A stretch of DNA of 64,000 bases. It comes from an uncultured Actinomycetes bacterium (GTDB taxonomy: Bacteria; Actinomycetota; Thermoleophilia; Solirubrobacterales; 70-9). A program made the translations under genes and the position numbers. The notes beneath the pieces were generated by a model. It made no database searches and was not told the DNA's origin. It worked only from the letters and a program-made list of their open reading frames with translations. Shown here piece by piece: positions 29,933 through 45,325 of this stretch. The stretch spans positions 1,062,196 to 1,126,195 of the forward strand of contig CAWITM010000001.1 of NCBI GenBank assembly GCA_963839115.1, given 5' to 3'. Every line of letters begins with the position of its first letter. Within the stretch, counting starts at the first letter, position 1.

Positions 29933-30832
29933 TCAGCCGTCGCGCGGCGCTGGGGTGGCGGCTGAGCGCAGGGCGCCGGCGCTGGCGATGACGACGAGGG
30001 CGATCGCGACGATTTCGGCCGCGGTAAGGGCCTGGGAGAGGGCGATGAAGCCGACCAGCGCCGCGGCGGCCGGCTCGAGGCTCATGAGGACGCCGAAGAC
30101 GGCGTTGGGCAGCCGGCGCAGGGCCTCGAGCTCGAGGGCGTAGGGGATCGCCGAGCTCAGCAGCCCGACGCCGAGGCCGGCGGCGAGGACGGCCGGCACG
30201 ATCAGCTCGCTGCCGCCCTGGGCGACGCCGACGGGGACCAGGAGCAGGGCCGCGATCGACATCGCGATGGCGAGACCGCCGAGCCCCGGTGAGCGCCCGC
30301 CGACCCGCGCGCTGAGCAGGATGTAGATGCCCCAGAAGGCACCGGCCAGCAGCGCCAGCAGCGCCCCGCCGAGGTCGATCGCGGTGCCGCCGAAGCCGCC
30401 CGACAGGAGGACGATGCCGAGCGCCGCCAGTCCCGCCCAGATCAGATCGGTGCGGCGGCGCGAGCCGAACACCGCCACCGCCAGCGGCCCGCAGAACTCG
30501 AGGGTGACGGCGACGCCGAGCGGCAGCCGGTCGATCGCCGCGTAGAAGCTGAAGTTCATGCCGGCCAGGGCGATGGCGAAGAGGGCGATGTCCCGCATCG
30601 CCTCGCGGCGCAGCGGGCGCAGGTCGCGGTGGGCGACGGCAAGCAGGATGAGCGCCGCGAACCCCGAGCGCAGCAGCACCGCGCCGCCCGGTCCGACCCG
30701 GCCGAACAGCGTCGTCGCCAGCGCCGCTCCCCACTGCACCGAGGCGATCGAGCCGACCAGCATCGCCACCGCCGGCGCCGGGGCGCCGCGAATTCCAGCG
30801 GCGTTTTCGCGTCCGGCCTCCATCGCCGCCAC
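29933..30832 (-). CDS. EamA/DMT-family transporter
   Basis: 299 aa with about 10 TM helices and the two-fold EamA repeat architecture. Confidence 0.85.
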   Translation of the reverse strand: MAAMEAGRENAAGIRGAPAPAVAMLVGSIASVQWGAALATTLFGRVGPGGAVLLRSGFAALILLAVAHRDLRPLRREAMRDIALFAIALAGMNFSFYAAIDRLPLGVAVTLEFCGPLAVAVFGSRRRTDLIWAGLAALGIVLLSGGFGGTAIDLGGALLALLAGAFWGIYILLSARVGGRSPGLGGLAIAMSIAALLLVPVGVAQGGSELIVPAVLAAGLGVGLLSSAIPYALELEALRRLPNAVFGVLMSLEPAAAALVGFIALSQALTAAEIVAIALVVIASAGALRSAATPAPRDG

Positions 30833-32533: not shown

Positions 32534-33133
32534 CTATTCGACGACGGTGAATTCCGTTTCCATGCCTTCCATCCAGTGTTCCTGGATGGTGCAGTAGAAG
32601 CGGTAGGTCCCAGCCGGGAGGTCGAACTGCTGGGTCGGACGTCCGCCCGGTTCGGTTTTGGCGATTTTCATCACCGGTCCGACCCCGGCGCCGTTTTCCT
32701 GGCGCTGGATGTTGAGGTTGTGGGGGTCTTCGCCTTCGTTGTTCAGCTGGATCTCGATCTCGCCGGCCTTCGCCGACGGCTTCGAGAGCGTGTATTTCTT
32801 TTCGCCGCCACGGTCGTCGGCGGTGACACTGACCGCGTTGGCTTCGGTTTCGACTTCCGGTGGGCTCGGTGGGGTCGAGACCGGCGGTGAGGTGGGCGGC
32901 GGCGTGATCGGCGGGACGACAGGTGCCGGCGTCGCTTCGGGCGCCGCCGCCACGGGGTTGCAGGTCCAGTAGTGCTTGATCCGCACGACCTTCGTCACCC
33001 TGCCGTGACGTTTGACGTGGGTGACGACACGTTTGGCGTGCCGCTGCCAGGCGCAGGCGGTGTCCGTGGCCGCGGCGCTGCCGGCGAGCGAGGCGACGAG
33101 GAGGGCGAAGGCGAAGAGGAGCGACAGTCCCAT
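32534..33133 (-). CDS. Secreted cupredoxin (type-1 copper) domain protein
   Basis: ATG 33133 (MGLSLLFAFALLVASLAGSAAA signal peptide), a Pro-rich linker, then a cupredoxin domain with ligand pattern H(DPHNL)...YC-x4-H-x4-M (YCTIQEHWMEGM). The start could instead be GTG 33208, which overlaps the DUF1501 stop. Confidence 0.8.
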   Translation of the reverse strand: MGLSLLFAFALLVASLAGSAAATDTACAWQRHAKRVVTHVKRHGRVTKVVRIKHYWTCNPVAAAPEATPAPVVPPITPPPTSPPVSTPPSPPEVETEANAVSVTADDRGGEKKYTLSKPSAKAGEIEIQLNNEGEDPHNLNIQRQENGAGVGPVMKIAKTEPGGRPTQQFDLPAGTYRFYCTIQEHWMEGMETEFTVVE

Positions 33134-33204
33134 GGCCGCGCCGCCCCGACGGCGAGCGCCGCCCACGGTCGTCAAGCCCCGACGGCGAGCGCCGCCGCCC
33201 ACCG

Positions 33205-34560
33205 TCACGCCTTCACCAGCGTCGGCAGCGAGAAGCCCGACGCGCCGGGAATGATCCGGGCCGCGTCGAAGCCCAGCCACTGCTCCAGCAGAGCGCAGTA
33301 CATCGCCCGGAAGTCGCTGGTCACGCGCAGGTTTTCGTTGCCGTCGAGGTTGGTCAGCCCGGGGTATTCGCCGACCATTTCGCCCTTCGCTTTGGAGCCG
33401 ACGACGAAGGCGCAGCCGGCGGCGCCATGGTCGGTCCCCTGGGAGCCGTTTTCCTGCGGCCGGCGGCCGAACTCGCTCCACATCTCGACCATCACCTGGT
33501 CGTCGAGCCCGCGGGCTTCGAGGTCGCGCTGGAAGGCGAGCACGCCTTCGCAGGTTTCGCGCAGGTTGTGTTCGAGGTCTTCGGCCTGGCCGGAGTGGGT
33601 GTCGTAACCGCCGGCGGCGCGGATCGTCACGACCCGCATCGGCAGCCCAAGCTGCAGGTAGTTGGCGAGGCCGGCGAGCTTGTGGCCGAATTCGGATTTG
33701 GGATAGGGGACCGGGCTGGTCACCGCGCCGACGCCGTTCAGTTCGGTCCGCAGCTTCTCGGTCATCGAGGCGGCCTGGCGCACCTGGACCAGCGCCGAGG
33801 AGTCCGACGGCAGGGTGCCGAAGCGGGCGAAGCTCCGGTGCATCTCGGCGCTGATCGGTTCGCCGACCGCCGACCACATGTCGTAGCCGTCGACCCCGTC
33901 GATCGCCGCCACCGGCTTCTGCGCGGTCGCGATCATCGGCGAGAGCGTGCCGTCCATCGATAGTCCCTGCAGCGGGTTTTCTTCGTCGCCGACTTCGTCG
34001 ATGTAGCGACCCAGCCAGCCGGTGTGGTAGCCGACGTCGAGCTCGCCGATCTCGTAGTAGTGGCGCGAGGTGAAGTGCGACTGGTCGGGGTGTTCGTAGC
34101 CGATCGCCGGGAAGGCCGAGACCTTGCCTTCGTCGTGGAGGGTCGCGAGCCCGGCGGCGGCCGGGTGCCACTGCAGGGTCGGGTCCTCGGTGAAGATCGG
34201 GCCGGCGCCCGGCGCCTCCTTGAGGTTCGGCCGCAGCTGCGCGTAGCGCGGGTCGCCGACCGGGGCCAGCACGCTGAGCGCGTCGATCCCGCCTTCGAAG
34301 AAGATCGAGACCAGCACTTTGTTGCCGGTCGGCGCCGCCTGGGCGATGCCGCGCTCGAAGGCCGAGAGCGGGATCTTCGAGGCGCCGTAGACCGCCAGTG
34401 CCAGGCCGGCACTCCGCGAGATGAACCGGCGCCGCGACAGCCCGGTCCCGGCCGGCTCCGGCATCCCCGGCTCGATCGCCGGCAGGCCGCGGCCGGCTTC
34501 GGCGGCGGCGCCGCGCAGCATCTGGGCGCGGGTGAAGTCCCGGCAGCACTCGTGGCTCAT
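33205..34560 (-). CDS. DUF1501 family protein (sulfatase/phosphatase-like fold) with Tat signal
   Basis: 451 aa. Twin-arginine motif SRRRFISRSAGLALA. Conserved DUF1501 C-terminal GTDHG. Paired with DUF1800 as usual. Confidence 0.88.
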   Translation of the reverse strand: MSHECCRDFTRAQMLRGAAAEAGRGLPAIEPGMPEPAGTGLSRRRFISRSAGLALAVYGASKIPLSAFERGIAQAAPTGNKVLVSIFFEGGIDALSVLAPVGDPRYAQLRPNLKEAPGAGPIFTEDPTLQWHPAAAGLATLHDEGKVSAFPAIGYEHPDQSHFTSRHYYEIGELDVGYHTGWLGRYIDEVGDEENPLQGLSMDGTLSPMIATAQKPVAAIDGVDGYDMWSAVGEPISAEMHRSFARFGTLPSDSSALVQVRQAASMTEKLRTELNGVGAVTSPVPYPKSEFGHKLAGLANYLQLGLPMRVVTIRAAGGYDTHSGQAEDLEHNLRETCEGVLAFQRDLEARGLDDQVMVEMWSEFGRRPQENGSQGTDHGAAGCAFVVGSKAKGEMVGEYPGLTNLDGNENLRVTSDFRAMYCALLEQWLGFDAARIIPGASGFSLPTLVKA

Positions 34561-34576
34561 CGCGTCGCTCGCTCTC

Positions 34577-36247
34577 TCATTGCAGGACGATGTCGGGGCT
34601 GACGCCGATCAGCTGCAGCAGCGCGTTCTGGCGCAGCGCCCGGTAGGGGCCCTTCTGCCAGCCGGCGGTGATCTGGGCCTGGCAGCGGTTGGCGAAGTCG
34701 AGCAGCTCGGCGCTGTGTTCGGGGCGCAGTTCCGGGCCGCCCCAGGCGGCGAGCGCCCGCACCAGCGCTTCTTCGGCGGTCTCGGTCTGCGAGTAGGGCG
34801 AGCCCCAGGCGTCGACCGAGACGCCGTCGAGCACGTAGTTGACGATGTTCCAGCGTTCCCGCATCCGCGAGGTGTCGAGCCAGCGGGTGTCGTCCCAGCC
34901 GGCCACGTTGGGCGGCCAGAAGAGCTGCTGGCCGGCGCCGTCGCAGAGCCAGACCCAGGCGGTGGTGTCGACGTAGCGGCCGAGCGCCCGCATCATCGTC
35001 GCCAGATGGACGACCGGCGGCTTGACCATCGGCGGCCCTTCGTAGAAGTCGGGGCTGAGCAGGATCGCCTCGAGCACCGGGCGGATCTGCCAGCCCGAGG
35101 AGGCGTAGGGGGACTCGAGGCTCGCCAGGGTCGCCGCCGAGGGCGGGCTCGGCACGAAGTAGTTCCACAGCTTGGTGACGAAGAAGGAGGGGTGGAGGGG
35201 GTTTTCGACGCAGAGCCGGCAGGCGTCTTCCCAGCCCCAGTTGCCGGCGCGCCCGAAGACCGTCTTGACGCCGTTGTCGTGGCGTTTGGGATCGAAGCGG
35301 AAGTTGTAGGCGCCGAGTTCGGAGGACCAGTCGTTGCGCCAGCCGGTCAGCGAGCGTGCCTGTTCGCGGATGTCGTCCTCGGTGTAGGCGCCGCGGTCGG
35401 CGCCGAGACTGAACAGCTCCATCATCTCGCGGGCGTAGTTCTCGTTCGGCGCGCCCTTGACGTTTTCGACACCGTTCAGCCACTGCAGCATCGCCGGGTC
35501 GATCGTCACCGCCTTGAAGAGGTCGAGGAAAGAGCCGAAGCCGGCGGCGCGGAAGAGGTTCGACTGGTCGATCATCTGCTGCGGCGTCGAGACGCCGCCC
35601 TGCGAGGTCGCGAACCAGTCGTGGAAGACCAGCGCCAGGCGCTCGACCAGTGGCTGATCCGTGCGGACCATCCGGTCGAGCCACCAGAGGTGGTCGTGGC
35701 CCCAGATCGTCGCCGGCGCCAGCGGCTGGCCTTCGTCGTCGGTCGGCGCCGGACCGGAGAGGACGGCGGCGCCGCTCGGCCGGGTCAGCGACTGGACCGC
35801 GCCGACCAGCCCCATCCCGACCAGCGCCTGGGCCTGCCCGGGTCCCGGCCCGAAGCCGGCGCGGGTCAGCAGACGGTTGGCCTGGGCGATCCCGAAGGCG
35901 CCCTGGAAGGTGCCGGGCGGCCGCGTTTCGCCGGTGCCGGTGGCCGGCGGCGGGGCCGGCGCGACGCGCTTGGGCGGCTTCGGCCCGGGGCCGCGGAAGT
36001 GGTGCTTGGGGGGTTTGTGCTTGTGGTGGAAGATGTAGCCCTGGACGCGCCAATCACCGTCGGCGGTGGGAACCCAGCGCCAGTGCTTGTCGTTCCAGGT
36101 GCCGTGGTGCTTGTGCTTGCCCTTGGCCCTGTGACCGCTCTTGCCGCCCTTGCCGGTCGGGCTGGCCTTGTGTTTGGCGTGCTTGGATCCGCCGCCTTTG
36201 GTCGAGAGCAGCTCGGCTTCGGTGGGGGTGATCTGCGGAATCGCCAT
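34577..36247 (-). CDS. DUF1800 family protein with Lys/His-rich N-terminal region
   Basis: Start taken as ATG 36247 (MAIPQITP..., 556 aa); there is no SD, so the start is uncertain. DUF1800-like core (HDWFATS, NENYAREMMELFSLG). N-terminal KHAKHK...GKHKHHG...HHKHKPPKHHF. Confidence 0.85.
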   Translation of the reverse strand: MAIPQITPTEAELLSTKGGGSKHAKHKASPTGKGGKSGHRAKGKHKHHGTWNDKHWRWVPTADGDWRVQGYIFHHKHKPPKHHFRGPGPKPPKRVAPAPPPATGTGETRPPGTFQGAFGIAQANRLLTRAGFGPGPGQAQALVGMGLVGAVQSLTRPSGAAVLSGPAPTDDEGQPLAPATIWGHDHLWWLDRMVRTDQPLVERLALVFHDWFATSQGGVSTPQQMIDQSNLFRAAGFGSFLDLFKAVTIDPAMLQWLNGVENVKGAPNENYAREMMELFSLGADRGAYTEDDIREQARSLTGWRNDWSSELGAYNFRFDPKRHDNGVKTVFGRAGNWGWEDACRLCVENPLHPSFFVTKLWNYFVPSPPSAATLASLESPYASSGWQIRPVLEAILLSPDFYEGPPMVKPPVVHLATMMRALGRYVDTTAWVWLCDGAGQQLFWPPNVAGWDDTRWLDTSRMRERWNIVNYVLDGVSVDAWGSPYSQTETAEEALVRALAAWGGPELRPEHSAELLDFANRCQAQITAGWQKGPYRALRQNALLQLIGVSPDIVLQ

Positions 36248-36363
36248 GGAGAAGAGGACCCGACAAGGGCTCTGATCCTTTGTCGGCCCCGCCCGACCCC
36301 GGCTTGAACCGGTTTCGGCCGGACTGGACGTACGACCCACCCCGGTCCGCCACAATTGAGGAG

Positions 36364-36651
36364 ATGGGACTCCAGTACCTCTTCATCGTCTTCTTCTTCG
36401 GCCTCGCGACCGCCATCATCGGCCGCTCCAAGGGCAGCTCATTCTGGATCTGGTTCCTGGTCGGCGCGGCGCTGCCGATCCTCGGCCTGGTCGCGGTGAT
36501 CCTCTCGCGCTTCGAGAAGGACGAACCCGAACGCCAGTGTCCGCACTGCTACAAGGCGGTCAAGCTCTACGTCCAGGTCTGTCCCCGCTGCGGCGCCGAC
36601 CTCTACCTGCCCGACCCGGCGGCTGTGCGCCACCCGGGCGTTCGCAACTAG
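36364..36651 (+). CDS. Small membrane protein with C-terminal zinc ribbon
   Basis: ATG 36364 preceded by gaggag. Two TM helices, then CPHC-x14-CPRC. Confidence 0.6.
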   Translation: MGLQYLFIVFFFGLATAIIGRSKGSSFWIWFLVGAALPILGLVAVILSRFEKDEPERQCPHCYKAVKLYVQVCPRCGADLYLPDPAAVRHPGVRN

Positions 36652-36675: not shown

Positions 36676-37080
36676 CTACCGCTCGTCCCACCAGTCGCGC
36701 CGGCCCTCGACGTCGCCGCGCGGGTTCTCGCCGAGGTTGGGCGCGCCGATGACGAGAATCTCGAGGCCCTCCGGCCCGGCCTCGTAGCCCCGCCAGGTGC
36801 CGGGCGGGACGCGCACCGCGTCCCATTCGGCGAGCTCGACGACCTCGTCGTCGAGCTTCATCCGCCCGCCGCCGCGCACGACCACGTAGATCTCCTCCTG
36901 GGTCTCGTGCGTGTGGCCGTAGGGAAAGCGATAGCCGGGTGGCACACGCTGGTAGGTCAGGCCCGACTCCTCGAGCTCGAGCGCCTTGGTCGCCGCGCGG
37001 AATTCCAGGTCCGGCGGGCCGTCGAAGTTCGACCCGAGGTCGTCCAGGTCCGCCTTGAGGTTCCTCAGCGTGAATGGCAC
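36676..37080 (-). CDS. Cupin domain protein
   Basis: 134 aa with cupin motifs GHTHETQEEIYVVVRG and W..V.PG. Paralogous to 55061..55465. Confidence 0.75.
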   Translation of the reverse strand: MPFTLRNLKADLDDLGSNFDGPPDLEFRAATKALELEESGLTYQRVPPGYRFPYGHTHETQEEIYVVVRGGGRMKLDDEVVELAEWDAVRVPPGTWRGYEAGPEGLEILVIGAPNLGENPRGDVEGRRDWWDER

Positions 37081-37162: not shown

Positions 37163-38230
37163 CTAGCGCAGCCAGGTGCGGACGATCGCGTTAGCGAAGC
37201 CGACGCCGTAGCGGAAGACCGCTGGCTTCTTGGAGTGGCCGTGGAGGCGCTGTTCGACGGTGATCGGAATCTCCTTGGCGGGGATGCCGCGCTTGATCGC
37301 CTCGATCATGAACTCGGAGGTGTGGAACTGCTCCTGGCGCAGCACCAGCTGCGGCAGCACGGTGGTGCGGACGGCGCGGTAGCCGTTGGAGCAGTCGGTG
37401 ACGTGGGTGCGGGTGATCAGCGAGACGAGGCGGTTGAAGAAGACGATCCCGAGCTCGCGGGCGAAGTGGTTGCGGTCGGCGTGGCCGAGCACGCGGGAGC
37501 CGTGGGCGACGTCGACCTCGCCGCTCAGCACCGGCTCGACCAAGCGCGCCATCTCGGAGGGCAGGTGCTGGCCGTCGGCGTCGAGGGTGACGACGATCAG
37601 CGCCCCCGATTCGACCATCAGCCGGTATCCCGTCCGCAGCGCCGCGCCGCCGCCACGGTTGGTGACGTGGCGGGCGACCAGGGCGCCGTGCTCGGCGGCG
37701 ACGTCGCCGGTGCCGTCGCGCGAGCCGTCGTCGACGACCAGGACCTCGGTGCGCACCCCGCAGACCTCGGCCGGCATCTGGTCGAGCACGACGCCGATGT
37801 TGTCGGCCTCGTTGTAGGCGGGGACGAGGATCGCGATCTTGTCCTTGAAGCGCTCCGGCAGGTGGGCCTGCCTGAACTCCTCCCAGGCCAGGCCCTCGAG
37901 CGCCGCCGAGAGCTGGCGGGCATTGCGGGCGCCGACCGCGAGGGCCCGCAGGATCAGCCCGAATCCGATGAAGATCGCGATCACGGCGAGGCCGAGGATG
38001 CGCCCGCCGTTGCCCTTTTCGAAGGAGAAGGCGGAGAGCAGGCCGTCGACGAGTTCGGTGCCGGTGACGATCGCCAGGCCGATGCCGGCCGCCAGCAGCA
38101 TCAGGACGTCGGCGTTGCGCAGCGCCCGTCGGCGGGCGACCGCGTAGACGATCATCGCCAGGGCGATGACGAGGCCGACGGCGCGCAGCGCCGTCAGTTC
38201 GGCCGGGAATATTCCTGCTATCGGGACCAT
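37163..38230 (-). CDS. Family-2 glycosyltransferase with N-terminal TM helices (polyprenyl-phosphate sugar synthase-like; DPM1/ArnC/GtrB type)
   Basis: Start ATG 38230 (MVPIAGIF...), 355 aa. About 3 TM helices, then ILVPAYNEADNIG, VVDDGSRDGT and TLDADGQHLP motifs. Confidence 0.88.
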   Translation of the reverse strand: MVPIAGIFPAELTALRAVGLVIALAMIVYAVARRRALRNADVLMLLAAGIGLAIVTGTELVDGLLSAFSFEKGNGGRILGLAVIAIFIGFGLILRALAVGARNARQLSAALEGLAWEEFRQAHLPERFKDKIAILVPAYNEADNIGVVLDQMPAEVCGVRTEVLVVDDGSRDGTGDVAAEHGALVARHVTNRGGGAALRTGYRLMVESGALIVVTLDADGQHLPSEMARLVEPVLSGEVDVAHGSRVLGHADRNHFARELGIVFFNRLVSLITRTHVTDCSNGYRAVRTTVLPQLVLRQEQFHTSEFMIEAIKRGIPAKEIPITVEQRLHGHSKKPAVFRYGVGFANAIVRTWLR

Positions 38231-39549
38231 TCGCGGCCAGAGGATATGGCCGCGGCGGCGCTGGTGAGGGCAAGGGCGGCGAGTGGGATGACGAGCGTCA
38301 TCAGCACCTCGTTGCGCCGCGGCGCCGCCAGCGAGATCGCGCCGACCGCGGTGACGAGGACGATCGGGGCCGCCAGTGCCAGCAGCTCCCACCAGCGCCG
38401 CCAGATCCCCAGCAGCACCAGACCGCCGATTCCCAGGAGCACGATGAGCACCTGGAGGACCTTGCCGGGGCCGCTGGAGAACGCCGCGCCGACCCCGCTC
38501 GACCACATCCGGCCGATCTTGCGCGCCGTCATCCCCAGATAGCCGATCGGGTCTTCGCCGAAGTAGTGGGAGAAGTTCTGCTTGCCGATCTTGCCGAGGG
38601 CGGAGTCGCGCGGGAGGTCGGGATAGCGTTCGGCGACGTGGCTGAAGAGCGGCGTCGGGTTGACTTCGTTCAGGGCCTGGGAGTCGGGCGGCAGGCTCTT
38701 CCCGGTTTCGCGCTGGTAGAGGATCGCCTTGACCCGCTGGTATTCGCCGTCGGCGGGATAGAAGGTGCCGACGTAGAGCGCCTTGCCGCTGCCGGTCGAG
38801 ATCGGCACCAGGCGTTCGAGGACGACGATGTTGCGGATCGTCCAGGGCAGGATCGGCACCAGCATCGCCGCGATCATCAGCCCCACCGCGGCGGCCGAGA
38901 GGCGCCATTCGCGCGCCAGCGCCAGGCGAGCGGCGGCGAGGACGACGAAGGCGCCCGCCACGAACAGGTACTCGGGCCGGAACATCGCCGTCATCCCGAA
39001 GAGCAGGCCGGCGAGGAGCCAGCGCCAAGGGCTCGCCGGTCGGTCGGAGGCCCAGAGGAAGGCGAGGACGGCGGCGGGCAGGGTGAAGATCGCCGGCGGC
39101 TCGCTCATCAGCTCCCCGGTCGAGTGCAGGAACGGGGGGTAGACGGCCATCGCGAGGGCGGCCAGCAGGGCGGTCCAGCGGCCACCGAGGCGCCAGCCGA
39201 GAGCGAAGACGACGAGGATCGAGGCGACCCCGAGCAGCGCCTCGACGATCCGCGCCGTCCCTTCGCGCGGCCCGCCGGTGGCGACGAAGGCGGCGGCGTA
39301 GAGCCAGGGCGCGCCCGGCGACCAGTCGCTGGAGTCTTCGAAGGTCGGCCCGCCGTAGCTGCCTTCCTCGTAGATCGCCTTGGCGAGGCCGTAGTAGGCG
39401 TGGGAATCGTCGGCGGGGTCCGCGACCGGGTGGACGACGGCGACGGCGCGGCAGGCGAGCCCGAGCGCCGCGATCACCGCCAGCGCGATCAGCGTGCGGC
39501 GTCCGTAGCGGTCGGGCAGCGAGCGGAACCAGTTGGCGGCGGCGGTCAA
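38218..39549 (-). CDS. GT-C fold membrane glycosyltransferase (PMT/ArnT-like, GT39/GT83-type), copy 1
   Basis: 443 aa, more than 10 TM helices. First extracytoplasmic loop has ADDSHAYYGLAKAI. TTG start. Its 3' end overlaps the GT2 start by 13 nt. Confidence 0.8.
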   Translation of the reverse strand: MTAAANWFRSLPDRYGRRTLIALAVIAALGLACRAVAVVHPVADPADDSHAYYGLAKAIYEEGSYGGPTFEDSSDWSPGAPWLYAAAFVATGGPREGTARIVEALLGVASILVVFALGWRLGGRWTALLAALAMAVYPPFLHSTGELMSEPPAIFTLPAAVLAFLWASDRPASPWRWLLAGLLFGMTAMFRPEYLFVAGAFVVLAAARLALAREWRLSAAAVGLMIAAMLVPILPWTIRNIVVLERLVPISTGSGKALYVGTFYPADGEYQRVKAILYQRETGKSLPPDSQALNEVNPTPLFSHVAERYPDLPRDSALGKIGKQNFSHYFGEDPIGYLGMTARKIGRMWSSGVGAAFSSGPGKVLQVLIVLLGIGGLVLLGIWRRWWELLALAAPIVLVTAVGAISLAAPRRNEVLMTLVIPLAALALTSAAAAISSGREWSR

Positions 39550-39583
39550 GGCGGCTCAGGCTATCCGCCGCGGATGACTCAGG

Positions 39584-39632
39584 ACCGTGGTTGACATTTC
39601 GCCCCTTTAAGAGGCCTTATGTCAACCACGGT
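39584..39632. other. Perfect 14-bp hairpin accgtggttgacat / atgtcaaccacggt (21-nt loop) in a divergent intergenic region
   Basis: Read directly. Each arm carries gTTGACAt, so a consensus -35 hexamer faces both directions. Lower GC than surroundings. Confidence 0.55.
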
Positions 39633-39720
39633 TCGGGGCGGCTGCCTGCCGGGCAGGTGCGGGCCGCCGCGGCGGCGAAGGAGCGATGGTCAACGTTTCC
39701 GACCCGAAGACAGGAGTCCC

Positions 39721-40119
39721 ATGCGCCGTACTTCACTGATCCTCGCGGGCGCCGTCGCCTGCCTCGCAGTCGCCCTCGCCGCAAGCGCCGCCGCGATGCC
39801 GACCGAAGAAAACCCGCCGACCCAGAACTGCAACCTGGCCTCGAAAAACGTCGTCGGCAAAAAATTCAAGGCCAAGGTGGCGGCGAAGAACGTCGATCCC
39901 TCGCAGGCCCGCTACGCGACCTGTGCCTACGCCAAGAAGGTCGCCGGCGGCCTGACCTCGCTGCGGATCGAGGAGCCGAAGGTCGTCCAGGGCTTCCGCT
40001 GCACCCCGACCGTCATCTCGACCGAACCCGACGTCGTCAAATACGCCTGCCTGTTCCGCGGTGCCGACACTGCAACCGAAATCAGGATCACCTTCAAGGT
40101 CAAGTACGACCTCGACTAG
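39721..40119 (+). CDS. Secreted 132-aa hypothetical protein (4 Cys)
   Basis: ATG 39721 preceded by aggag. Signal peptide MRRTSLILAGAVACLAVALAASAAA. Lies between the two GT-C genes. Confidence 0.65.
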   Translation: MRRTSLILAGAVACLAVALAASAAAMPTEENPPTQNCNLASKNVVGKKFKAKVAAKNVDPSQARYATCAYAKKVAGGLTSLRIEEPKVVQGFRCTPTVISTEPDVVKYACLFRGADTATEIRITFKVKYDLD

Positions 40120-41642
40120 GGCGCGGCGTGCGGCCGGGGGGCGGATTGCTCCCCGCCGCCCGGCGACCCGCGCCCGGCGAGGGCGCGAGTGCCGGCGGCC
40201 GCCCAGACGGCGCCGGCCCCGGCGCAGGCGCTGAGCAGCGGGATCAGGACGAGGACGCGGCGCGGCGATGCGACCAGCAGGGCACTGATCGCGGTGATCG
40301 CGAGGAAGACGACGCCGATCAGCAGCGCCTCCCAGCGGCGCAGCCAGGCGAGGACGCCGAGGCCGAGCAGGCCGAAGCCGAGCAGCAGCCAGTGGAGCGC
40401 CTCCCAGACCGGCGTCCGCATGATGCGGCGCGGGCCGTGGGACCAGATCCGGCCGATCTTGGCGAGGACGAAGGAGACGTATTCGCCGGTGTGTTCGGTG
40501 ATGTCGTCGCCGAGCTGTTCCTTGCCCATCTTCGAGAGTCCCTTGTCGGATTCCATCCCCGGGTAGCGGGCGGCGGCGAGCCGGGCGAGGATCTGCTCGA
40601 GGCGCAGCTTCTGCGCGTCGTCGGGCGCGAAGAGGTCCGGGTTGTGTTCGACGACCGCGGCGCCGACCGCTTCCGGGTTGCCGTCCGAGGGCAGGTAGGT
40701 CCCGGCGTAGAGCACTTGCCCGCCGCCGGTCGAGATCGGCACGAGCCGATCGAGTGCCACCGCGTTGCGCACCGTCCAGGGCGCCACCACCACGACGATC
40801 CCCAGCACCAAGACCGCCGCCGCCCCCAACACGCGAAGGAGCACTTTGACCCGGGGGTCGCTTGCCGCCCTATAGGCGACTTTCGACCCGCGGGTCGAAA
40901 CGTACCCCCGGGCCGCGATGAGCAGGGCGAGGAGGGCGGCGATTGCCAGGTACTCGGGACGGACGAGGGCGAGGGCGCCGAGGGTCAGGCCGGGGACGAG
41001 CCAGCGCCAGAGGGACGATTGACCGTCGGCGCCCGCCGAGGGCCAGGTCGCGTCCCCGGCCCAGAGGATTCCGAGGATCGCGCCGGCAAGCAGCGTCGCG
41101 GCGAGCGGCTCGGTCATCAGCATGCCGGTGTACTCGATGGTGGCGGGATAGATCGCCACGGCCAGCGCCGCGATCAGTCCGGCGACGACCGCGCCGCCGG
41201 CAACCCGCTCGCCCTCGTCCCTCGAGTCCAGCGCCTCGTCGAGCGGCGCGTCCGCCTCGCGGCGTCGCCGTCCGCTCACGATCCCGCCCAGCCGCCTTCC
41301 CAGCAGATACGCGAAGAGCACCGCCAGCGCGCCGATCACCGCCAGCACCTCGCGCGCCAGGCGTTCGTGGACGCCGCCGCTCACCTCGTAGATCCCCGCC
41401 GCGAGCAGCGGCAGGCCGGGGGAGTAGTTGGTCGACGGCTGCGTCGCCCCGGCGCCGACCGTGAATCCGTGGCCCTCGTCGAGGTTGCGGGCGATCGCCG
41501 CGTAGGCGGCGGCGTCGAAGACGGGCGCCCGACCGTCCCATGCTTCGCCGACCCGCAGGCCGAGGCCGAGCAGCAGGATCGCCACCAGCGCGGCGAGCCC
41601 GGCACGCCCGCCGTTGCGCGCGGCCAACCGACCTCCCATCAA
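40116..41642 (-). CDS. GT-C fold membrane glycosyltransferase (PMT/ArnT-like), copy 2
   Basis: About 507 aa (TTG 41642 or ATG 41639), many TM helices. Shares with copy 1 the RPEYL, WT(I/V)RN...L(E/D)RLVPISTG(S/G)G and ARKIGR(M/I)WS blocks. Confidence 0.8.
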   Translation of the reverse strand: MMGGRLAARNGGRAGLAALVAILLLGLGLRVGEAWDGRAPVFDAAAYAAIARNLDEGHGFTVGAGATQPSTNYSPGLPLLAAGIYEVSGGVHERLAREVLAVIGALAVLFAYLLGRRLGGIVSGRRRREADAPLDEALDSRDEGERVAGGAVVAGLIAALAVAIYPATIEYTGMLMTEPLAATLLAGAILGILWAGDATWPSAGADGQSSLWRWLVPGLTLGALALVRPEYLAIAALLALLIAARGYVSTRGSKVAYRAASDPRVKVLLRVLGAAAVLVLGIVVVVAPWTVRNAVALDRLVPISTGGGQVLYAGTYLPSDGNPEAVGAAVVEHNPDLFAPDDAQKLRLEQILARLAAARYPGMESDKGLSKMGKEQLGDDITEHTGEYVSFVLAKIGRIWSHGPRRIMRTPVWEALHWLLLGFGLLGLGVLAWLRRWEALLIGVVFLAITAISALLVASPRRVLVLIPLLSACAGAGAVWAAAGTRALAGRGSPGGGEQSAPRPHAAP

Positions 41643-41725
41643 CGGGATTCAGCGTTCGTCATCCAGCGGATTCAACTAGGTGGCCGGGCAGAATTCCGAC
41701 CTCACAGCCACTAAGCTGCCCGGCC

Positions 41726-42901
41726 ATGCGAATCCTCATCCTCGGGGGCGACGGCTACCTCGGCTGGCCGACGGCGCTCCGCTTCTCGGCCCGCGGGCAC
41801 GAGGTCTCTGTCGTCGACAACTACTCGCGTCGCCGCTGGGTCGGCGACGTCGGCTCCGATTCGCTGACTCCGATCGCCGCGCTCGGCGAGCGGATCGACG
41901 CCTGGGAGGGCATCTCCGGCGACCGCATCCGCCTCTTCGAGGGCCCGGTCGAGGACGGCGAGTGGCTCGACGGCGTGATCGCCGAAGTCCGACCCGAGGC
42001 AGTCGTCCACTACGGCCAGCAGTCCTCGGCGCCCTATTCGATGATGTCGCGCGCCAACGCGGTCGAAACCCAGAGCGCCAACATCATCGGCACGCTCAAC
42101 CTGGTCTTCAGCCTCCGCGAGCACGCCCCCGACGCCCACCTGGTGAAGCTCGGGACGATGGGCGAGTACGGCCAGCCCAACATCGATATCGAGGAGGGCT
42201 ACATCGAGATCGAGCACAAGGGCCGCCGCGACACCCTGCCGTTCCCGAAGATGCCGGGCTCCTTCTACCACTGCTCGAAGGTCGCCGACTCGACCAACAT
42301 CCACTTCGCCTGCCGCACCTGGGGCCTGCGCGCCACCGACCTCAACCAGGGCGTCGTCTACGGGATCGAGACCGACGAGACCGCAGGCGACGAGCGCCTG
42401 ATCACCCGCTTCGACTACGACGAGGTGTTCGGCACCGTTCTGAACCGCTTCTGCCTGCAATCGGTCATCGGCCACCCGCTGACCGTCTACGGCGCCGGCC
42501 ACCAGACGCGCTCCTTCCTCAACATCCGCGACACGCTCAACTGCGTCGAGCTGGCGGTGACGAACCCGGCCGCGGCCGGCGAGTTCCGTGTCTTCAACCA
42601 GTTCACCGAGCAATTCTCGGTCCTGCAGCTGGCCGAGCTCGTCAAGGGCGCCGCCGAGCACCTCGGCTACACCGTCGAGATCCAGCATTTCGACAACCCC
42701 CGGGTCGAGAAGGAAGAGCACTACTACAACGCCGTCAACAGCAACCTGCTTGACCTCGGCCTCCAGCCGACCCTCTTGGGCGAGGAGCTGGTCGAGACGC
42801 TGCTGCACAAGATCGAGCGCTACAAGGGCAACGCGATCGAGGGCCCGATCGACCCCCGCACCCGCTGGAACCCCGCCAAGCCCGCCACTGCCCAAGCTTG
42901 A
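41726..42901 (+). CDS. sqdB: UDP-sulfoquinovose synthase (SQD1/SqdB family SDR)
   Basis: Start ATG 41726, 391 aa. Near-colinear match to SQD1 hallmarks: ILGGDGYLGW, SLTPI, SAPYSM, LVKLGTMGEYGQPNIDIEEG, LPFPKMPGSFYHCSKV, TDLNQGVVYG, FGTVLNRFC, HPLTVYG.GHQTR, FRVFNQFTEQFSV, NPRVEKEEHYYNA. Confidence 0.92.
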   Translation: MRILILGGDGYLGWPTALRFSARGHEVSVVDNYSRRRWVGDVGSDSLTPIAALGERIDAWEGISGDRIRLFEGPVEDGEWLDGVIAEVRPEAVVHYGQQSSAPYSMMSRANAVETQSANIIGTLNLVFSLREHAPDAHLVKLGTMGEYGQPNIDIEEGYIEIEHKGRRDTLPFPKMPGSFYHCSKVADSTNIHFACRTWGLRATDLNQGVVYGIETDETAGDERLITRFDYDEVFGTVLNRFCLQSVIGHPLTVYGAGHQTRSFLNIRDTLNCVELAVTNPAAAGEFRVFNQFTEQFSVLQLAELVKGAAEHLGYTVEIQHFDNPRVEKEEHYYNAVNSNLLDLGLQPTLLGEELVETLLHKIERYKGNAIEGPIDPRTRWNPAKPATAQA

Positions 42902-43082: not shown

Positions 43083-44780
43083 ATGAGAGCCGCTGACACG
43101 CTGATGGAATCACTGAAGGCCGAGGGCGTCAAAGACGTCTTCGGGATCCCCGGCGGGGCGAATCTGCCCACCTACGACGCTCTCGTCGACGCCGACTTCC
43201 GCCACGTCCAGGTGCGCCACGAGCAGGGCGGCGGCCACGCCGCCGAGGGCTACGCCAAGGCCTCCGGGCGGGTCGGGGTCGCCTTCGCCACCTCCGGTCC
43301 CGGCGCCACCAACCTGGTGACCGCGATCGCCGACGCGATGCTCGACTCGGTTCCGACGGTCTTCATCACCGGCCAGGTGAGAACGGAGCTGATCGGCACC
43401 GACGGCTTCCAGGAGGCCGACATCCTCGGCGCCACGCTGCCGTTCGTGAAGCACAGCTTCCAGGTGACCGACGCGCGCCAGATCCCCGAGTACGTCCACG
43501 AGGCCTTCCACGTCGCCTCGACCGGGCGCCCGGGACCGGTGCTGCTCGACATCCCGCAGGACCTCAGCCGCGCCGACATCGACTACGAGCCGCGCACCGA
43601 GCCGGTCGAACTGCCCGGCTACAAGCCCTCGACCGAGGGCAACATCAAACAGATCCGGATCGCCGCCAAAGCGCTGGCCAACGCCCGCCGGCCGATCTTC
43701 TACACCGGCGGCGGCGTCATCAACGCCAACGCCTCAGAGGAGCTCCGCGAGCTCGCCGACTCCGACAACTTCCCGGTCACCTCGACGCTGATGGGCCTCG
43801 GCGCCTTCCCGGCCTCGAGCGAGCGCTTCGTCGGCATGCTGGGGATGCACGGCACCTACACCGCCAACCAGGCGATGGACAACGCCGACCTGATCGTCGC
43901 AATCGGCGCCCGCTTCGACGACCGCATCACCGGCAAGCTGGCCGAGTTCGCGCCGAACGCCAAAGTCATCCACATCGACATCGACCCGGCCGAGATCTCC
44001 AAGAACGTCGGCGCCCACATCCCGATCGTCGGCGACGTCAAGCTGGTGATGCCGAAGCTGACCCGCGAGTACCGGGCGCTGCAGACCGACTCCTCCCGGC
44101 TCGACGGCTGGTGGACCCAGATCCGCTCCTGGCAGGACGGTCACCCGCTCTTCTACGAGCCGGGGACCGGCGGCGAGATCAAGCCACAGTTCATGATTGA
44201 GACGCTCCACCGGGCGACCGGCGGCGACGCGATCATCACCTCCGACGTCGGCCAGCACCAGATGTGGACGGCGCAGTACTACGGCTTCGACAAGCCGCGG
44301 CGGTGGATCAACTCCGGCGGCCTTGGGACGATGGGCTTCGGCCTGCCCTCAGCGGTCGGCGCCAAGGTCGCCTGCCCCGACGAGCAGGTCGTCTGCGTGG
44401 CCGGCGACGGCAGCCTGATCATGAACGTCCAGGAGCTCGCCACCTGTGTCACCGAACAGATCCCGGTCAAGATCTTCCTGATGAACAACGGCTACATGGG
44501 CATGGTCCGCCAGTGGCAGGAGCTCTTCTGGGACCGTCGCTACAGCGCCGTCGAGATGGGCGCCAGCCCCGACTGGGTGAAGCTGGCCGAGGCCTTCGGC
44601 GCGACCGGCATGCGCTGCGAGGACGCCGGCGACCTCGAGGAGATGATGGGTACGGCGCTCGCCGCCGAGGGCCCGGTCCTGCTCGACGTCCGCGTCACCC
44701 AGGAGGAGAACGTCTATCCGATGATCGCGCCGGGCAGCGCCGCACGCGACATGGTCGAGGCGCCGGGACTGGTTCGGTAA
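43083..44780 (+). CDS. ilvB: Acetolactate synthase large subunit
   Basis: Start ATG 43083 (MRAADTLMESLKAEGV...), 565 aa. ThDP-enzyme motifs (GGGHAAEGYAKASGRVGV.FATSGPGATN; GLGTMGFGLP...GDGS..MN). Confidence 0.96.
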   Translation: MRAADTLMESLKAEGVKDVFGIPGGANLPTYDALVDADFRHVQVRHEQGGGHAAEGYAKASGRVGVAFATSGPGATNLVTAIADAMLDSVPTVFITGQVRTELIGTDGFQEADILGATLPFVKHSFQVTDARQIPEYVHEAFHVASTGRPGPVLLDIPQDLSRADIDYEPRTEPVELPGYKPSTEGNIKQIRIAAKALANARRPIFYTGGGVINANASEELRELADSDNFPVTSTLMGLGAFPASSERFVGMLGMHGTYTANQAMDNADLIVAIGARFDDRITGKLAEFAPNAKVIHIDIDPAEISKNVGAHIPIVGDVKLVMPKLTREYRALQTDSSRLDGWWTQIRSWQDGHPLFYEPGTGGEIKPQFMIETLHRATGGDAIITSDVGQHQMWTAQYYGFDKPRRWINSGGLGTMGFGLPSAVGAKVACPDEQVVCVAGDGSLIMNVQELATCVTEQIPVKIFLMNNGYMGMVRQWQELFWDRRYSAVEMGASPDWVKLAEAFGATGMRCEDAGDLEEMMGTALAAEGPVLLDVRVTQEENVYPMIAPGSAARDMVEAPGLVR

Positions 44781-45325
44781 TGGAGGCTGGAACTCCAGAT
44801 CTGGTCAAACTCGAGGATCTGCGGATCCCCGGGCAGCTGACCGGCCGCAAGCACATCCTCTCGATCCAGGTGGAGAACAAGCCGGGCGTGCTGGCCCGTG
44901 TCGCCGGCCTCTTCTCGCGCCGCGGCTTCAACATCGACACGCTCGCGGTCGGGCCTACCGACGACCCCAGCATCTCGCGCGTCACCCTCACCCTCGACGG
45001 CGCCGTTCACCCGATCGACCAGGTGACCAAGCAGCTCCACAAGCTCGTCAACGTCCTCAAGATCCGCGACATGGAGCCGACCGACACGGTCGCTCGCGAG
45101 ATGGCCCTCTTCAAAGTCTCGGCCGCGGTCGAGAACCGCTCCGAGATCATCCAATTCGCCGAGATCTTCCGCGCCAAGATCGTCGACGTGGCGCGCCGGA
45201 CGATGACGATCGAGGTCACCGGCTCGGCCGACAAGATCGAGGCCTTCGAGCGCATGATCCGCCCCCACGGATTGGTCGAGATGGTGCGGACGGGCGAGAT
45301 TGCCATTTCGCGTGGTCACGAGTAG
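44780..45325 (+). CDS. ilvN: Acetolactate synthase small (regulatory) subunit
   Basis: ATG 44780 overlaps the ilvB TAA by 1 nt. ACT domain HILSIQVENKPGVLARVAGLFSRRGFNI. Confidence 0.94.
   Translation: MEAGTPDLVKLEDLRIPGQLTGRKHILSIQVENKPGVLARVAGLFSRRGFNIDTLAVGPTDDPSISRVTLTLDGAVHPIDQVTKQLHKLVNVLKIRDMEPTDTVAREMALFKVSAAVENRSEIIQFAEIFRAKIVDVARRTMTIEVTGSADKIEAFERMIRPHGLVEMVRTGEIAISRGHE

Follow-up and report, generated by a model that had tools for sequence, protein, structure and literature searches.

Recurrent pairing of sqdB with a predicted lipid-carrier glycosyltransferase gene suggests a cell-envelope use of sulfoquinovose

In Sulfolobus acidocaldarius sulfoquinovose (SQ) is part of a dolichol-pyrophosphate-linked oligosaccharide that is then transferred by AglB, and this Agl3-dependent N-glycosylation is the only described case of UDP-SQ feeding a polyprenol-assembled non-lipid glycoconjugate. 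In the SqdB-SqdX, SQD1-SQD2 and SqdBDC pathways UDP-SQ is used by a retaining GT4 or GT8 lipid glycosyltransferase to give SQDG. SQDG substitutes for phospholipid at phosphate limitation (review PMC13436972). In Streptococcus pyogenes the GacI/GacJ/GacK/GacL system adds GlcNAc side chains to the group A carbohydrate: a GT2 enzyme with a 3-TM DUF2304 partner makes a beta-sugar-P-undecaprenol, and on the outer side of the membrane a GT-C enzyme passes the sugar on (Rush et al., bioRxiv 10.1101/180810). According to the same work, which also cites PpgS and Rv3632, the GacJ-GacI-type family experimentally makes polyprenyl-phosphate sugars for GT-C enzymes, and the GacJ domain (DUF2304) binds GacI, stimulates it and in some bacteria is fused to it. 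ArnC/ArnT and the 'three-component' GT2/flippase/GT-C systems (PMC11127046) likewise proceed from nucleotide sugar via polyprenyl-phosphate sugar to periplasmic transfer.

Here we analyzed a 64-kb stretch of DNA (the window) from a soil actinobacterium in which sqdB is clustered with one GT2 and two GT-C genes. The pairing suggests an undescribed cell-envelope use of sulfoquinovose, and no description of such a bacterial system was found in the literature searched.

The sqdB, GT2 and GT-C genes of the window

A first-pass annotation had assigned sqdB, a GT2 gene, two GT-C genes and a gene for a secreted 132-aa protein to this cluster. Every gene was upheld in place by a GC3 frame plot and two gene-calling scripts, and all of the assignments hold. 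sqdB (41726..42901, + strand, 391 aa) encodes a UDP-sulfoquinovose synthase of the SQD1/SqdB family that matched Arabidopsis SQD1 (1qrr) over residues 2-383 (E 2.3e-144) and the NCBIfam UDP-sulfoquinovose synthase model NF041015 (E 2.6e-145) with 484 bits, a score that does not reach the model cut-off of 575 bits. The protein carries the motifs GGDGY, GTMGEYG and YHCSK. GTMGEYG and YHxxK, with the catalytic Thr and the Tyr-His-x-x-Lys including the SQD1-type His, were kept in 133/133 full-length SqdB homologues from the fetched loci, nearly all of which adjoin GT2 genes of the window type. Upstream lies a divergent intergenic region of 83 bp (41643..41725, no strand) shared with GT-C1. When the 110 nt preceding sqdB were aligned for 81 Solirubrobacterales sequences, the consensus directly before the ATG was gcTAc.cTgCC. 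The TAnnnT box conserved 8 nt ahead of this start codon (TAAGCT, about 41712-41717) suggests a candidate promoter of a leaderless or near-leaderless transcript.

The GT2 gene (37163..38230, - strand, 355 aa) matched PF00535 in Pfam (E 3.6e-22) and its translation contains the motifs PAYNEADN, VVDDGSRDGT and TLDADGQH, preceded by three N-terminal TM helices in a hydropathy scan. A DUF2304/GacJ-like 3-TM domain spans about residues 1-120 and a GacI/ArnC/DPMS-type GT2 domain about residues 130-355; the Pfam threshold for DUF2304 is not met by the window GT2 itself and DUF2304 was matched by 50/58 aligned full-length colinear homologues. The best NCBIfam matches, all below their cut-offs, were AglJ, PpgS (second-best, E 4.5e-28, 98 bits vs the 370-bit equivalog cut-off), Dol-P-hexose transferase and ArnC. 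PDB sequence searches returned DPMS (4.4e-14) and ArnC (1e-9), and Foldseek with the AF2 model (pLDDT 91.9) returned ArnC (3e-13), DPMS (3e-12) and GtrB (5e-10), so by sequence and fold the closest solved relatives are the polyprenyl-phosphate sugar synthases DPMS, ArnC and GtrB. The earlier label 'DPM1/ArnC-type' thus holds as to the polyprenyl-phosphate type, and judged by its sequence the enzyme is assigned more sharply as a fused GacJ-GacI type. We predict that it is a putative polyprenyl-phosphate sulfoquinovosyltransferase. No residue pattern was found that separates sqdB-linked from unlinked GT2 homologues, and donor specificity is therefore not readable from the GT2 sequence.

GT-C2 (38218..39549, - strand, 443 aa) is a PMT_2-type GT-C glycosyltransferase with 7 TM segments by hydropathy (PF13231 PMT_2, E 4.6e-10, 40.4 bits vs a cut-off of 26.1; PF02366 PMT, E 5e-6), and the previously noted 13-nt overlap of its stop end with the GT2 start is real (38218-38230). 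Its paralogue GT-C1 (40116..41642, - strand, 508 aa; 32% identity, E 2e-50) is a polytopic membrane glycosyltransferase of the GT-C superfamily with 9 TM segments by hydropathy and an invariant D43 in the first external loop; the database gene call for it (P0435) starts 5 codons further in and gives 503 aa. GT-C1 had no direct Pfam match. Its family profile matched AglB (1e-4), STT3 and Pmt2, and its AF2 model (pLDDT 72, pTM 0.77) matched AglB, STT3A, ArnT, PglB, Pmt and AftB with probabilities of about 0.9-1.0 and TM-scores of 0.28-0.41. Between the two GT-C genes, with a 4-nt overlap between its stop and that of GT-C1, lies the gene for the 132-aa protein (39721..40119, + strand; supported by the GC3 frame plot), which has a signal-peptide-like N-terminus and four conserved Cys and no significant Pfam or NCBIfam match. 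In 15 related loci a homologue is encoded at the corresponding place, with duplicates in L012, L038 and L040. This secreted four-Cys protein could assist as an accessory factor or itself be an acceptor.

A Pfam scan that took in every large ORF of the window and all but a few of the small ones found no GT4 or GT8 (SqdX/SqdD-like) gene, in agreement with the reported absence of an SqdX-like gene, and no GtrA/Wzx-type flippase. Of the 'complete' pathway claimed at first, the genes predicted for the nucleotide-sugar, carrier and transfer steps are present and a flippase is not.

A gene for a 123-aa protein with two TM segments (hydropathy) and a C-terminal zinc ribbon (weak zinc-ribbon Pfam matches) lies at 36280..36651 (+ strand). 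It is found near GT2 in most of 80 Solirubrobacterales loci, as a conserved neighbour only, and its relevance is uncertain.

Linkage of sqdB and GT2 across genomes

Loss of synteny in relatives had been named beforehand as the result that would speak against a functional pairing. Metagenome loci were gathered with a single query (P0129), and many of them are for that reason closely related to one another. Within the Solirubrobacterales the pair was kept in 66 loci, divergent in all, and in 17/66 the GT2 gene directly adjoins sqdB at a distance of 38-272 bp. Outside the order, sqdB was found within 5 kb of a GT2 homologue in 52 of the 56 informative loci, i.e. those with a GT2 homologue and enough flanking DNA. 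Of these 52, 51 are tandem and one convergent. At identities below 62% their GT2 proteins fall into seven or more lineages, GC ranges from 0.37 to 0.73, and the loci include a Myxococcota MAG and Desulfobacterales/Thermodesulfobacteriota-type genomes. This linkage outside the Solirubrobacterales is the decisive evidence for the sqdB-GT2 association, and the pairing of sqdB with lipid-carrier-type enzymes extends over three or more bacterial phyla.

PMT_2-type GT-C, Wzx-type flippase or LPG_synthase_TM genes are recurrent beside the pair, and the proposed co-occurrence with GT-C genes was seen in relatives, where PMT_2-type genes lie between or beside the two in independent gene orders. The order sqdB-GTC-GT2 occurs in L099, L118 and L124, and probably in L114 and L115 (where GT2 was found by tblastn and not called by the ORF caller), and sqdB-GTC-GTC-GT2 occurs in L161/L170. 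In the Myxococcota two PMT_2 genes lie upstream on the same strand, and a further group has the GT-C-like proteins c11 and c12 (hhalign probability 94%) with a Wzx-type flippase directly upstream of sqdB.

A candidate route and its alternatives

The best explanation, which we hold with moderate confidence, is that UDP-SQ is converted to polyprenyl-P-SQ, from which GT-C enzymes would transfer SQ onto an extracytoplasmic envelope acceptor. Support comes from homology and gene neighbourhood in a wholly computational analysis. By strong homology, SqdB would form UDP-alpha-sulfoquinovose from UDP-glucose and sulfite. Family membership and conserved linkage suggest that GT2 then moves SQ to polyprenyl phosphate at the cytoplasmic face, which, as GT2 enzymes are inverting, would yield beta-SQ-P-polyprenol. 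The lipid-linked SQ would next be flipped, by a component absent from the window; candidates in other lineages are the Wzx-type (Polysacc_synt) or LPG_synthase_TM genes in the same locus. Finally, both GT-C paralogues may take SQ-P-polyprenol as donor and modify one or two extracytoplasmic acceptor sites, possibly on a glycopolymer of the wall or membrane, on a lipoglycan or on secreted proteins, and inverting transfer would yield an alpha linkage.

The GT-C step is tied to sqdB less firmly than the GT2 step, because many sqdB-GT2 loci lack a GT-C gene: none was recognisable near the pair in the 17 directly adjacent Solirubrobacterales loci or in 14 loci of an aminotransferase-sqdB-GT2 group. 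This favours a different outcome, which we consider rather unlikely, where the pathway ends with the GT2 product, either SQ-P-polyprenol or a GT2-made beta-SQ glycerolipid (cf. cyanobacterial MgdA making GlcDAG). Such a product would be an anionic, phosphorus-sparing sulfonated membrane lipid, and the window GT-C enzymes would use another donor or be loosely associated. The phosphate-starvation-like setting of the pair in L167, among pstSCAB, GDPD and phosphodiesterase genes, fits this, as does the known replacement of phospholipid by SQDG. However, the closest characterised or solved relatives of GT2 (GacI, PpgS, DPMS, ArnC, GtrB) make polyprenyl-phosphate sugars for GT-C enzymes, GT-C genes lie precisely between sqdB and GT2 in three independent gene orders, and a Wzx-type flippase adjoins sqdB in a further group.

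Synteny within the Solirubrobacterales is by itself weak evidence, because it runs from the zinc-ribbon gene, GT2 and sqdB over ilvB and ilvN through menF and so holds for ilvBN and men genes too. In addition, genes without a relation to either, for example those of LuxR-type regulators, can separate GT2 from sqdB. Both observations would suit inherited synteny without shared function, with SqdB feeding an SQDG synthase elsewhere and GT2/GT-C using glucose, mannose or another common sugar. We find this improbable, as the 52 linked outside loci add tandem and convergent orientations to the divergent one of the Solirubrobacterales and are diverse in lineage and GC, these loci have not retained the ilv and men neighbours, and across lineages SqdB and GT2 fall off in step in their identity to the window proteins. 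That the SqdB homologue makes another nucleotide sugar, so that the pathway carries a different sugar, is very improbable: NF041015 scores below its curated cut-off and the more distant SqdB partners reach only 47-54% identity with the window SqdB, but the match to crystallised SQD1 is full-length and its catalytic residues are invariant in the homologues. Taken together, the original interpretation that SQ reaches the envelope or a protein via a lipid carrier is supported.

Comparison with known systems

The SQDG pathways begin with the same enzyme and intermediate (UDP-SQ) as the window, but the partner enzyme in the window is an inverting polyprenyl-phosphate-type GT2, the window has no GT4 or GT8, and a product other than a diacylglycerol lipid is predicted. 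Unlike Agl3-dependent N-glycosylation, the bacterial system of the window is predicted to use one sugar linked through a monophosphate, with GT-C enzymes of the PMT_2 type. ArnC/ArnT (with ArnE/F; lipid A aminoarabinose) is alike in that ArnC is the best structural match of GT2 and ArnT is among the fold matches of GT-C1, whereas identity is only 22-23%, the window is without ArnE/F or a GtrA-type flippase, and sugar and acceptor differ. The Mycobacterium tuberculosis system that makes polyprenyl-P-GalNAc for arabinogalactan (PpgS/Rv3632/Rv3779) is likewise actinobacterial, with a DUF2304-type helper and a GT-C transferase, but the window GT2 falls far below the PpgS cut-off, the sugar is different, and the helper is fused here and separate there.

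The Gac system shares the logic of a GT2-made beta-sugar-P-polyprenol, a DUF2304 partner and GT-C transfer outside the membrane, as well as a Wzx-type flippase, which for the window-type GT2 was seen in related loci only. It differs in its donor sugar (GlcNAc vs predicted sulfoquinovose), and the window module has a dedicated nucleotide-sugar synthase (sqdB), a DUF2304-like domain fused to GT2, two GT-C paralogues and no flippase, and its predicted acceptor is not a known polyrhamnose. We regard the locus as a variant of the known GT2, flippase and GT-C systems.

Gene content of the window and identity of SqdB

The window has a G+C content of about 70%, and its real genes were told from many spurious ORFs by a third-position GC frame plot. 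Translations and Pfam searches showed that the first-pass annotation had all coordinates and motifs of the cluster right: the GT2 gene (37163-38230, minus strand), its start overlapped by 13 nt by the gene for the glycosyltransferase GT-C2 (38218-39549, minus strand), a gene for a 132-aa secreted protein (39721-40119, plus strand), the gene for GT-C1 (40116-41642, minus strand) and the divergent sqdB (41726-42901, plus strand). sqdB is followed on the same strand by ilvB (43083-44780) and ilvN (44780-45325), and then by a menaquinone gene cluster on mixed strands (45312 onward). On the other side of the cluster, a cupin gene (134 aa; 36676-37080, minus strand) lies between GT2 and a gene for a 123-aa membrane protein with two transmembrane (TM) segments and a C-terminal zinc ribbon (36280-36651, plus strand). 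The zinc-ribbon protein is encoded next to or near GT2 in most Solirubrobacterales loci; the cupin gene has no counterpart in any of 80 related loci of the order and is apparently an insertion that only the genome of the window has.

Just upstream of the cluster is a co-directional trio of genes for cupredoxin-like, DUF1501 and DUF1800 proteins (32534-36355, minus strand), and the DUF1501/DUF1800 pair is found in a subset of related loci. The rest of the window is made up of housekeeping genes, several of which carry names that are our interpretation of Pfam domains: argG, dnaE, gltX, a UvrD/PcrA-type helicase gene, folD, gatA/gatB, menF/D/C/A/B/E, ilvC, serA and leuA. Genes for a cysteine-synthase-type PLP enzyme and a hexapeptide acyltransferase are also present, probably a cysK/cysE pair. 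At the window end leuA is adjoined by an ORF of low coding score that resembles an AbiEi antitoxin or a DUF559 endonuclease (63148-63945, plus strand).

SqdB aligned over residues 2-383 with the crystallised Arabidopsis SQD1 (1qrr; E 2.3e-144, 484.6 bits) and over the whole of the NCBIfam model NF041015 (484.2 bits, E 2.6e-145; the score is below the equivalog cut-off of 575, which is a naming threshold and not a biochemical feature). Three motifs, the SDR nucleotide-binding glycine motif GGDGY (residue 7), GTMGEYG with the catalytic Thr (residue 143) and YHCSK of the Tyr-His-x-x-Lys type (residue 181), were kept in all 133 full-length homologues; in SQD1 the Thr and the Tyr-His-x-x-Lys residues are T145, Y182, H183 and K186. 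This strong homology predicts that the enzyme makes UDP-alpha-sulfoquinovose (UDP-alpha-SQ) from UDP-glucose and sulfite.

About 8-11 nt before the sqdB ATG we observed a conserved TAnnnT box, in the window (TAAGCT, within the region 41700-41725) as well as in the 80 Solirubrobacterales loci. The box is so near the ATG that there is no space for a Shine-Dalgarno sequence, and the sqdB transcript may therefore have no leader or almost none. For the divergent GT-C1 gene, another conserved block, GGATGCTAT / GGATTCAACTAGG, is a possible -10 box.

The GT2 and its linkage with sqdB

The GT2 has a GT-A domain (PF00535, E 3.6e-22) with a DxD motif (DADGQH), and its D217 and D219 were invariant among 58 homologues; the AF2 model of the protein had a pLDDT of 91.9. 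Sequence matches in the PDB were the P. furiosus DPMS (4.4e-14) and ArnC (1e-9), and Foldseek returned ArnC (3e-13), DPMS (3e-12) and GtrB (5e-10). The top NCBIfam matches were AglJ, PpgS, Dol-P-hexose transferase and ArnC, all scoring under the equivalog cut-offs, so the GT2 is orthologous to none of the four. The nearest characterised relatives are thus polyprenyl-phosphate sugar synthases, and polyprenyl phosphate is the predicted acceptor.

Three TM helices are predicted ahead of the catalytic domain by the AF2 model and hydropathy. PF10066 (DUF2304) gave no match in the window GT2 even at E 10; the domain was matched by 50 of the 58 full-length colinear homologues, at best with 4.5e-13. 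In the N-terminal region R16 and G19 hardly vary, each being found in at least 90% of the 58 aligned sequences, and these two residues as well as R33 were conserved among the representative GT2 lineages compared. The DUF2304 family includes GacJ, a partner protein with three TM helices that binds the GT2 GacI of S. pyogenes and boosts its activity; Rush et al. also described GacJ-GacI fusions, among others in the cultured strains Geobacter sp., Desulfuromonas soudanensis, Desulfurivibrio alkaliphilus and Desulfurispirillum indicum, and PpgS/Rv3632 as the counterpart in M. tuberculosis (bioRxiv 10.1101/180810). The GlcNAc-P-Und of the S. pyogenes system is labile to acid and stable to alkali. 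When GT2 homologues linked to sqdB were compared with unlinked ones, no convincing specificity signature was found; weak differences occurred at D167, G283 and S305, two of which are shared by DPMS.

A scan for SqdB with one genome per species gave 80 loci (69-82% identity), labelled, where the label was informative, as Solirubrobacterales, Conexibacteraceae, Thermoleophilia or Actinomycetota MAGs, a few being named just 'bacterium'. About 48 of these loci resemble the window in having GT-C genes, mostly two, between GT2 and sqdB; L061 and L070 have a single one. GT2 is directly divergent from sqdB, at 38-272 bp and with no GT-C gene between, in 17 loci, and unrelated insertions, for example of a LuxR-type regulator, separate the two in four; the other contigs do not extend far enough to be classified. 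This shows the GT2-sqdB pair to be the stable core of the locus, with GT-C genes gained and lost among Solirubrobacterales. Chromosomes of the order that carry the module include OY970321.1 and OY970245.1. Order-level synteny was not counted as evidence of shared function, since ilvB, ilvN and menF downstream are equally conserved across the 80 loci and unrelated genes insert between GT2 and sqdB.

The first search for GT2 homologues found no relative below 88% identity, and distant ones were reached through 50%-identity cluster representatives. Among the latter was a family of ~350-aa proteins, 31-49% identical to the GT2, whose alignment with it begins at the first TM helix and continues to the end; 389 representatives, counting fragments and closer relatives, scored below E 1e-30. 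For two of these homologues, on the first contigs (<2 kb), the 3' end of a co-directional sqdB was directly upstream. Scanning metagenomes with one homologue (P0129), along with additional look-ups, provided 87 further loci. The pairing of sqdB and GT2 pointed out in the first-pass annotation was kept in these relatives outside Solirubrobacterales: an SqdB homologue with 47-70% identity to that of the window is encoded within 5 kb in 52 of the 56 loci whose flanking DNA was long enough to be informative, and no sqdB was found within this distance in the other four (L084, L134, L159, L163). In 51 of the 52, sqdB is upstream and on the same strand as GT2, mostly directly adjacent, and in one (L167) the genes are convergent.

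Clustering at 62% identity resolved at least seven sqdB-linked GT2 lineages, with locus G+C from 0.37 to 0.73; since the metagenome loci include many that are closely related to the query, the independent events number closer to seven than to fifty. Named members are a Myxococcota MAG (GCA_035541475.1) and Desulfobacterales, Thermodesulfobacteriota and 'Deltaproteobacteria' genomes, including the 5.57-Mb CP070652.1. Because the pair occurs in three relative orientations and in several phyla, and the ilv and men neighbours are not retained, functional coupling of sqdB with this GT2 is by far the simplest reading of the gene order.

GT-C enzymes, flippases and other neighbours

GT-C2 scored above the Pfam gathering thresholds for PMT_2 (40.4 bits vs 26.1) and PMT (26.7 vs 22.7). 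GT-C1 had no direct match to either family, and it is a paralogue of GT-C2 (32% identity, E 2e-50); PF13231 is present in a few of its close homologues. Single-sequence PDB searches with the two proteins gave no matches, and a profile of the GT-C family matched AglB, STT3 and Pmt2. By hydropathy the GT-C proteins have 7-9 TM segments. A fold search with the GT-C1 model (pLDDT 72) returned only GT-C enzymes as top matches (AglB, STT3A, ArnT, PglB, Pmt4, Pmt1/2 and AftB), with probabilities of ~0.9-1.0 and low TM-scores of 0.28-0.41. The catalytic acidic residue of GT-C enzymes is located after the first TM helix, in the first extracytoplasmic loop, and in GT-C1 the invariant D43 follows TM1 and is aligned to the loop-1 region of AglB. 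Enzymes of the PMT_2 type act as protein as well as lipid/glycan transferases. In five loci (L015, L016, L046, L047, L060) the GT-C1-type gene is broken into two to four ORFs in different frames, which could reflect pseudogenisation or assembly frameshift errors.

A signal peptide and four conserved Cys characterise the family of the small secreted protein, whose gene separates the two GT-C genes; Pfam gave no significant match. The gene is present at this position in the window and in 15 of the related loci; it is tandemly duplicated in L012 (7777-8616) and L038 (7752-8574), and in L040 (7810-8457) it is a fused two-domain ORF. By its position the protein is a candidate accessory factor or acceptor.

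Outside the order, PMT_2-type GT-C genes accompany the pair in arrangements that differ from that of the window: sqdB-GTC-GT2 was found in L099, L118 and L124, and probably in L114 and L115, where GT2 was missed by the ORF caller and found by tblastn. On a Desulfobacterota-type contig of 46% G+C (L161/L170) the order on one strand is sqdB-GTC-GTC-GT2, followed by genes for GDSL, methyltransferase, sulfotransferase, DegT and LPG_synthase_TM proteins and a second GT2, and in the Myxococcota MAG two PMT_2 genes with the same orientation lie a few kb upstream. No GT-C gene was within reach in 14 loci with the order aminotransferase-sqdB-GT2, nor in the 17 directly adjacent Solirubrobacterales loci, indicating that the GT-C step is bound less tightly to sqdB than the GT2 step.

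In the first-pass annotation the cluster was regarded as a complete pathway. The nucleotide-sugar, GT2 and GT-C genes are indeed present, but a flippase is not encoded: the scanned ORFs of the 64-kb window include no GtrA, ArnE/F or Wzx-type flippase, and the sole candidate, an EamA-family transporter (29933-30832), is 6 kb off and not linked. The window would thus work like a GT2, flippase and GT-C system that is incomplete as encoded here. LPG_synthase_TM or Wzx-type genes are present in related loci, and in a high-GC group the order is c11 (a 9-10-TM protein cluster), a Wzx/Polysacc_synt flippase, sqdB, GT2 and c16 (also 9-10 TM), with a Wzy_C-type protein and a phosphodiesterase close by. 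The clusters c11 and c12 matched a GT-C profile with 94% probability. By this gene content, with the flippase, c11 and GT2 beside sqdB, the high-GC group encodes a full set like the S. pyogenes GT2, DUF2304 helper, flippase and GT-C (GacI/J/K/L). We also considered c16 (620-710 aa, downstream of GT2) as a GT-C and rejected it (18% profile probability); otherwise it has a weak DUF2079 match.

In nearly every locus of the 14-locus lineage (L135-L154), a class-V, cysteine-desulfurase-like aminotransferase (gene cluster c3, 16 members) is encoded directly upstream of sqdB on the same strand (e.g. L143, 5159-6394; L147, 5141-6550). As a speculation, this enzyme could supply the sulfur donor, e.g. 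via cysteine sulfinate desulfination. In the convergent locus L167, a 21-kb contig (ENA ERZ27297509), sqdB and GT2 are surrounded by pstS, pstCAB-like genes, a glycerophosphodiester phosphodiesterase and two type-I phosphodiesterases, a phosphate-starvation-like setting that suggests regulation by phosphate limitation.

Sulfotransferase-type genes adjoin GT2 homologues on contigs with no detected sqdB (L134, L159, L163), and several sqdB-linked loci also have a sulfotransferase. The domain was assigned by Pfam in L081 (1176-2105, beside a GT2 homologue on a contig too short upstream to exclude sqdB), L162 (10986-11963), L168 (11117-11998) and L170 (13067-13939). The genes in L134 and L159/L163, at or a few genes downstream of GT2, were assigned by clustering with the L081 gene (c7). 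Possibly, the DUF2304-GT2 family is generally devoted to sulfo-sugars, by way of C-sulfonation or O-sulfation.

A possible lipid-carrier route for sulfoquinovose

We propose that SqdB would provide UDP-alpha-SQ, as its homology strongly suggests, and that the GT2, as a putative fused enzyme of the GacJ-GacI type, would move SQ onto polyprenyl phosphate at the cytoplasmic face; the latter step is modelled on characterised family members and on the gene linkage. GT2 enzymes invert, and the product would therefore be beta-SQ-P-polyprenol. A flippase, for which the window holds no gene, would carry the SQ-lipid outward, where GT-C1 and GT-C2 would put SQ on extracytoplasmic acceptors. The two GT-C paralogues suggest two sites or two acceptors. 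As a whole, we consider this mechanism somewhat better than an even bet.

In SQDG operons sqdB is accompanied by the gene for a GT4 or GT8 sulfoquinovosyltransferase. The absence of an SqdX-like gene, remarked on in the first-pass annotation, was borne out, as no scanned ORF of the window has a GT4 (SqdX/SQD2) or GT8 (SqdD) domain, and none was found among the examined neighbours in related loci. The product of the GT2 could itself be a terminal sulfonolipid, which would agree with the loci that lack GT-C genes and with the L167 surroundings, which resemble a phosphate-starvation setting; the known biology of the GT2 family and the recurrence of GT-C and flippase genes speak against such an end product, and we regard it as rather unlikely. 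Still less probable is that the gene order is inherited synteny only, with a canonical SQDG synthase elsewhere in the genome, as the cross-phylum linkage argues strongly against it. That SqdB makes another sugar is unlikely given its full-length match to SQD1 (E 2.3e-144) and the catalytic motifs kept in its homologues.

Taken together, the lipid-carrier mechanism and the sulfotransferase loci can be joined in a broader reading, in which polyprenyl-P-SQ is a new lipid-linked donor, envelope polymers or proteins are decorated with SQ, a pool of SQ exists outside SQDG and a sister branch uses O-sulfation. We put this forward tentatively, its chances being slightly under even. If true, the makers would be abundant non-phototrophs, including soil Solirubrobacterales, Myxococcota and Desulfobacterota-type lineages, and the unrecognised non-SQDG pool would be a photosynthesis-independent source of SQ that feeds sulfoglycolysis in soils and sediments. 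For poorly known and abundant soil actinobacteria it would mean a strongly acidic, phosphorus-free surface decoration, and the sulfotransferase-linked sister GT2 branch would reach a similar anionic decoration by O-sulfation. Besides a new lipid-linked sugar donor, there would be a third kind of SQ-containing molecule.

A review of bacterial SQ cycling gives SqdB-SqdX as the biosynthetic route and regards SQ as essentially derived from the phototroph lipid SQDG (PMC13436972), and archaeal reviews name the N-glycan of Sulfolobus as the SQ-containing glycoconjugate outside lipids. The first-pass annotation knew of no described bacterial system of the kind proposed here, and the full-text literature, with most subscription journals left out, yielded none either: UDP-SQ was never coupled to a GT2, polyprenyl phosphate, a GT-C or a bacterial surface polymer, nothing was reported on sqdB in Thermoleophilia, and DUF2304 led to the GacI/GacJ paper. 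Machinery consisting of a GT2 with its helper, a flippase and a GT-C is of a type already well known; the novelty lies in the sugar, in sqdB having been recruited to the module and in the wide range of bacteria that have it.
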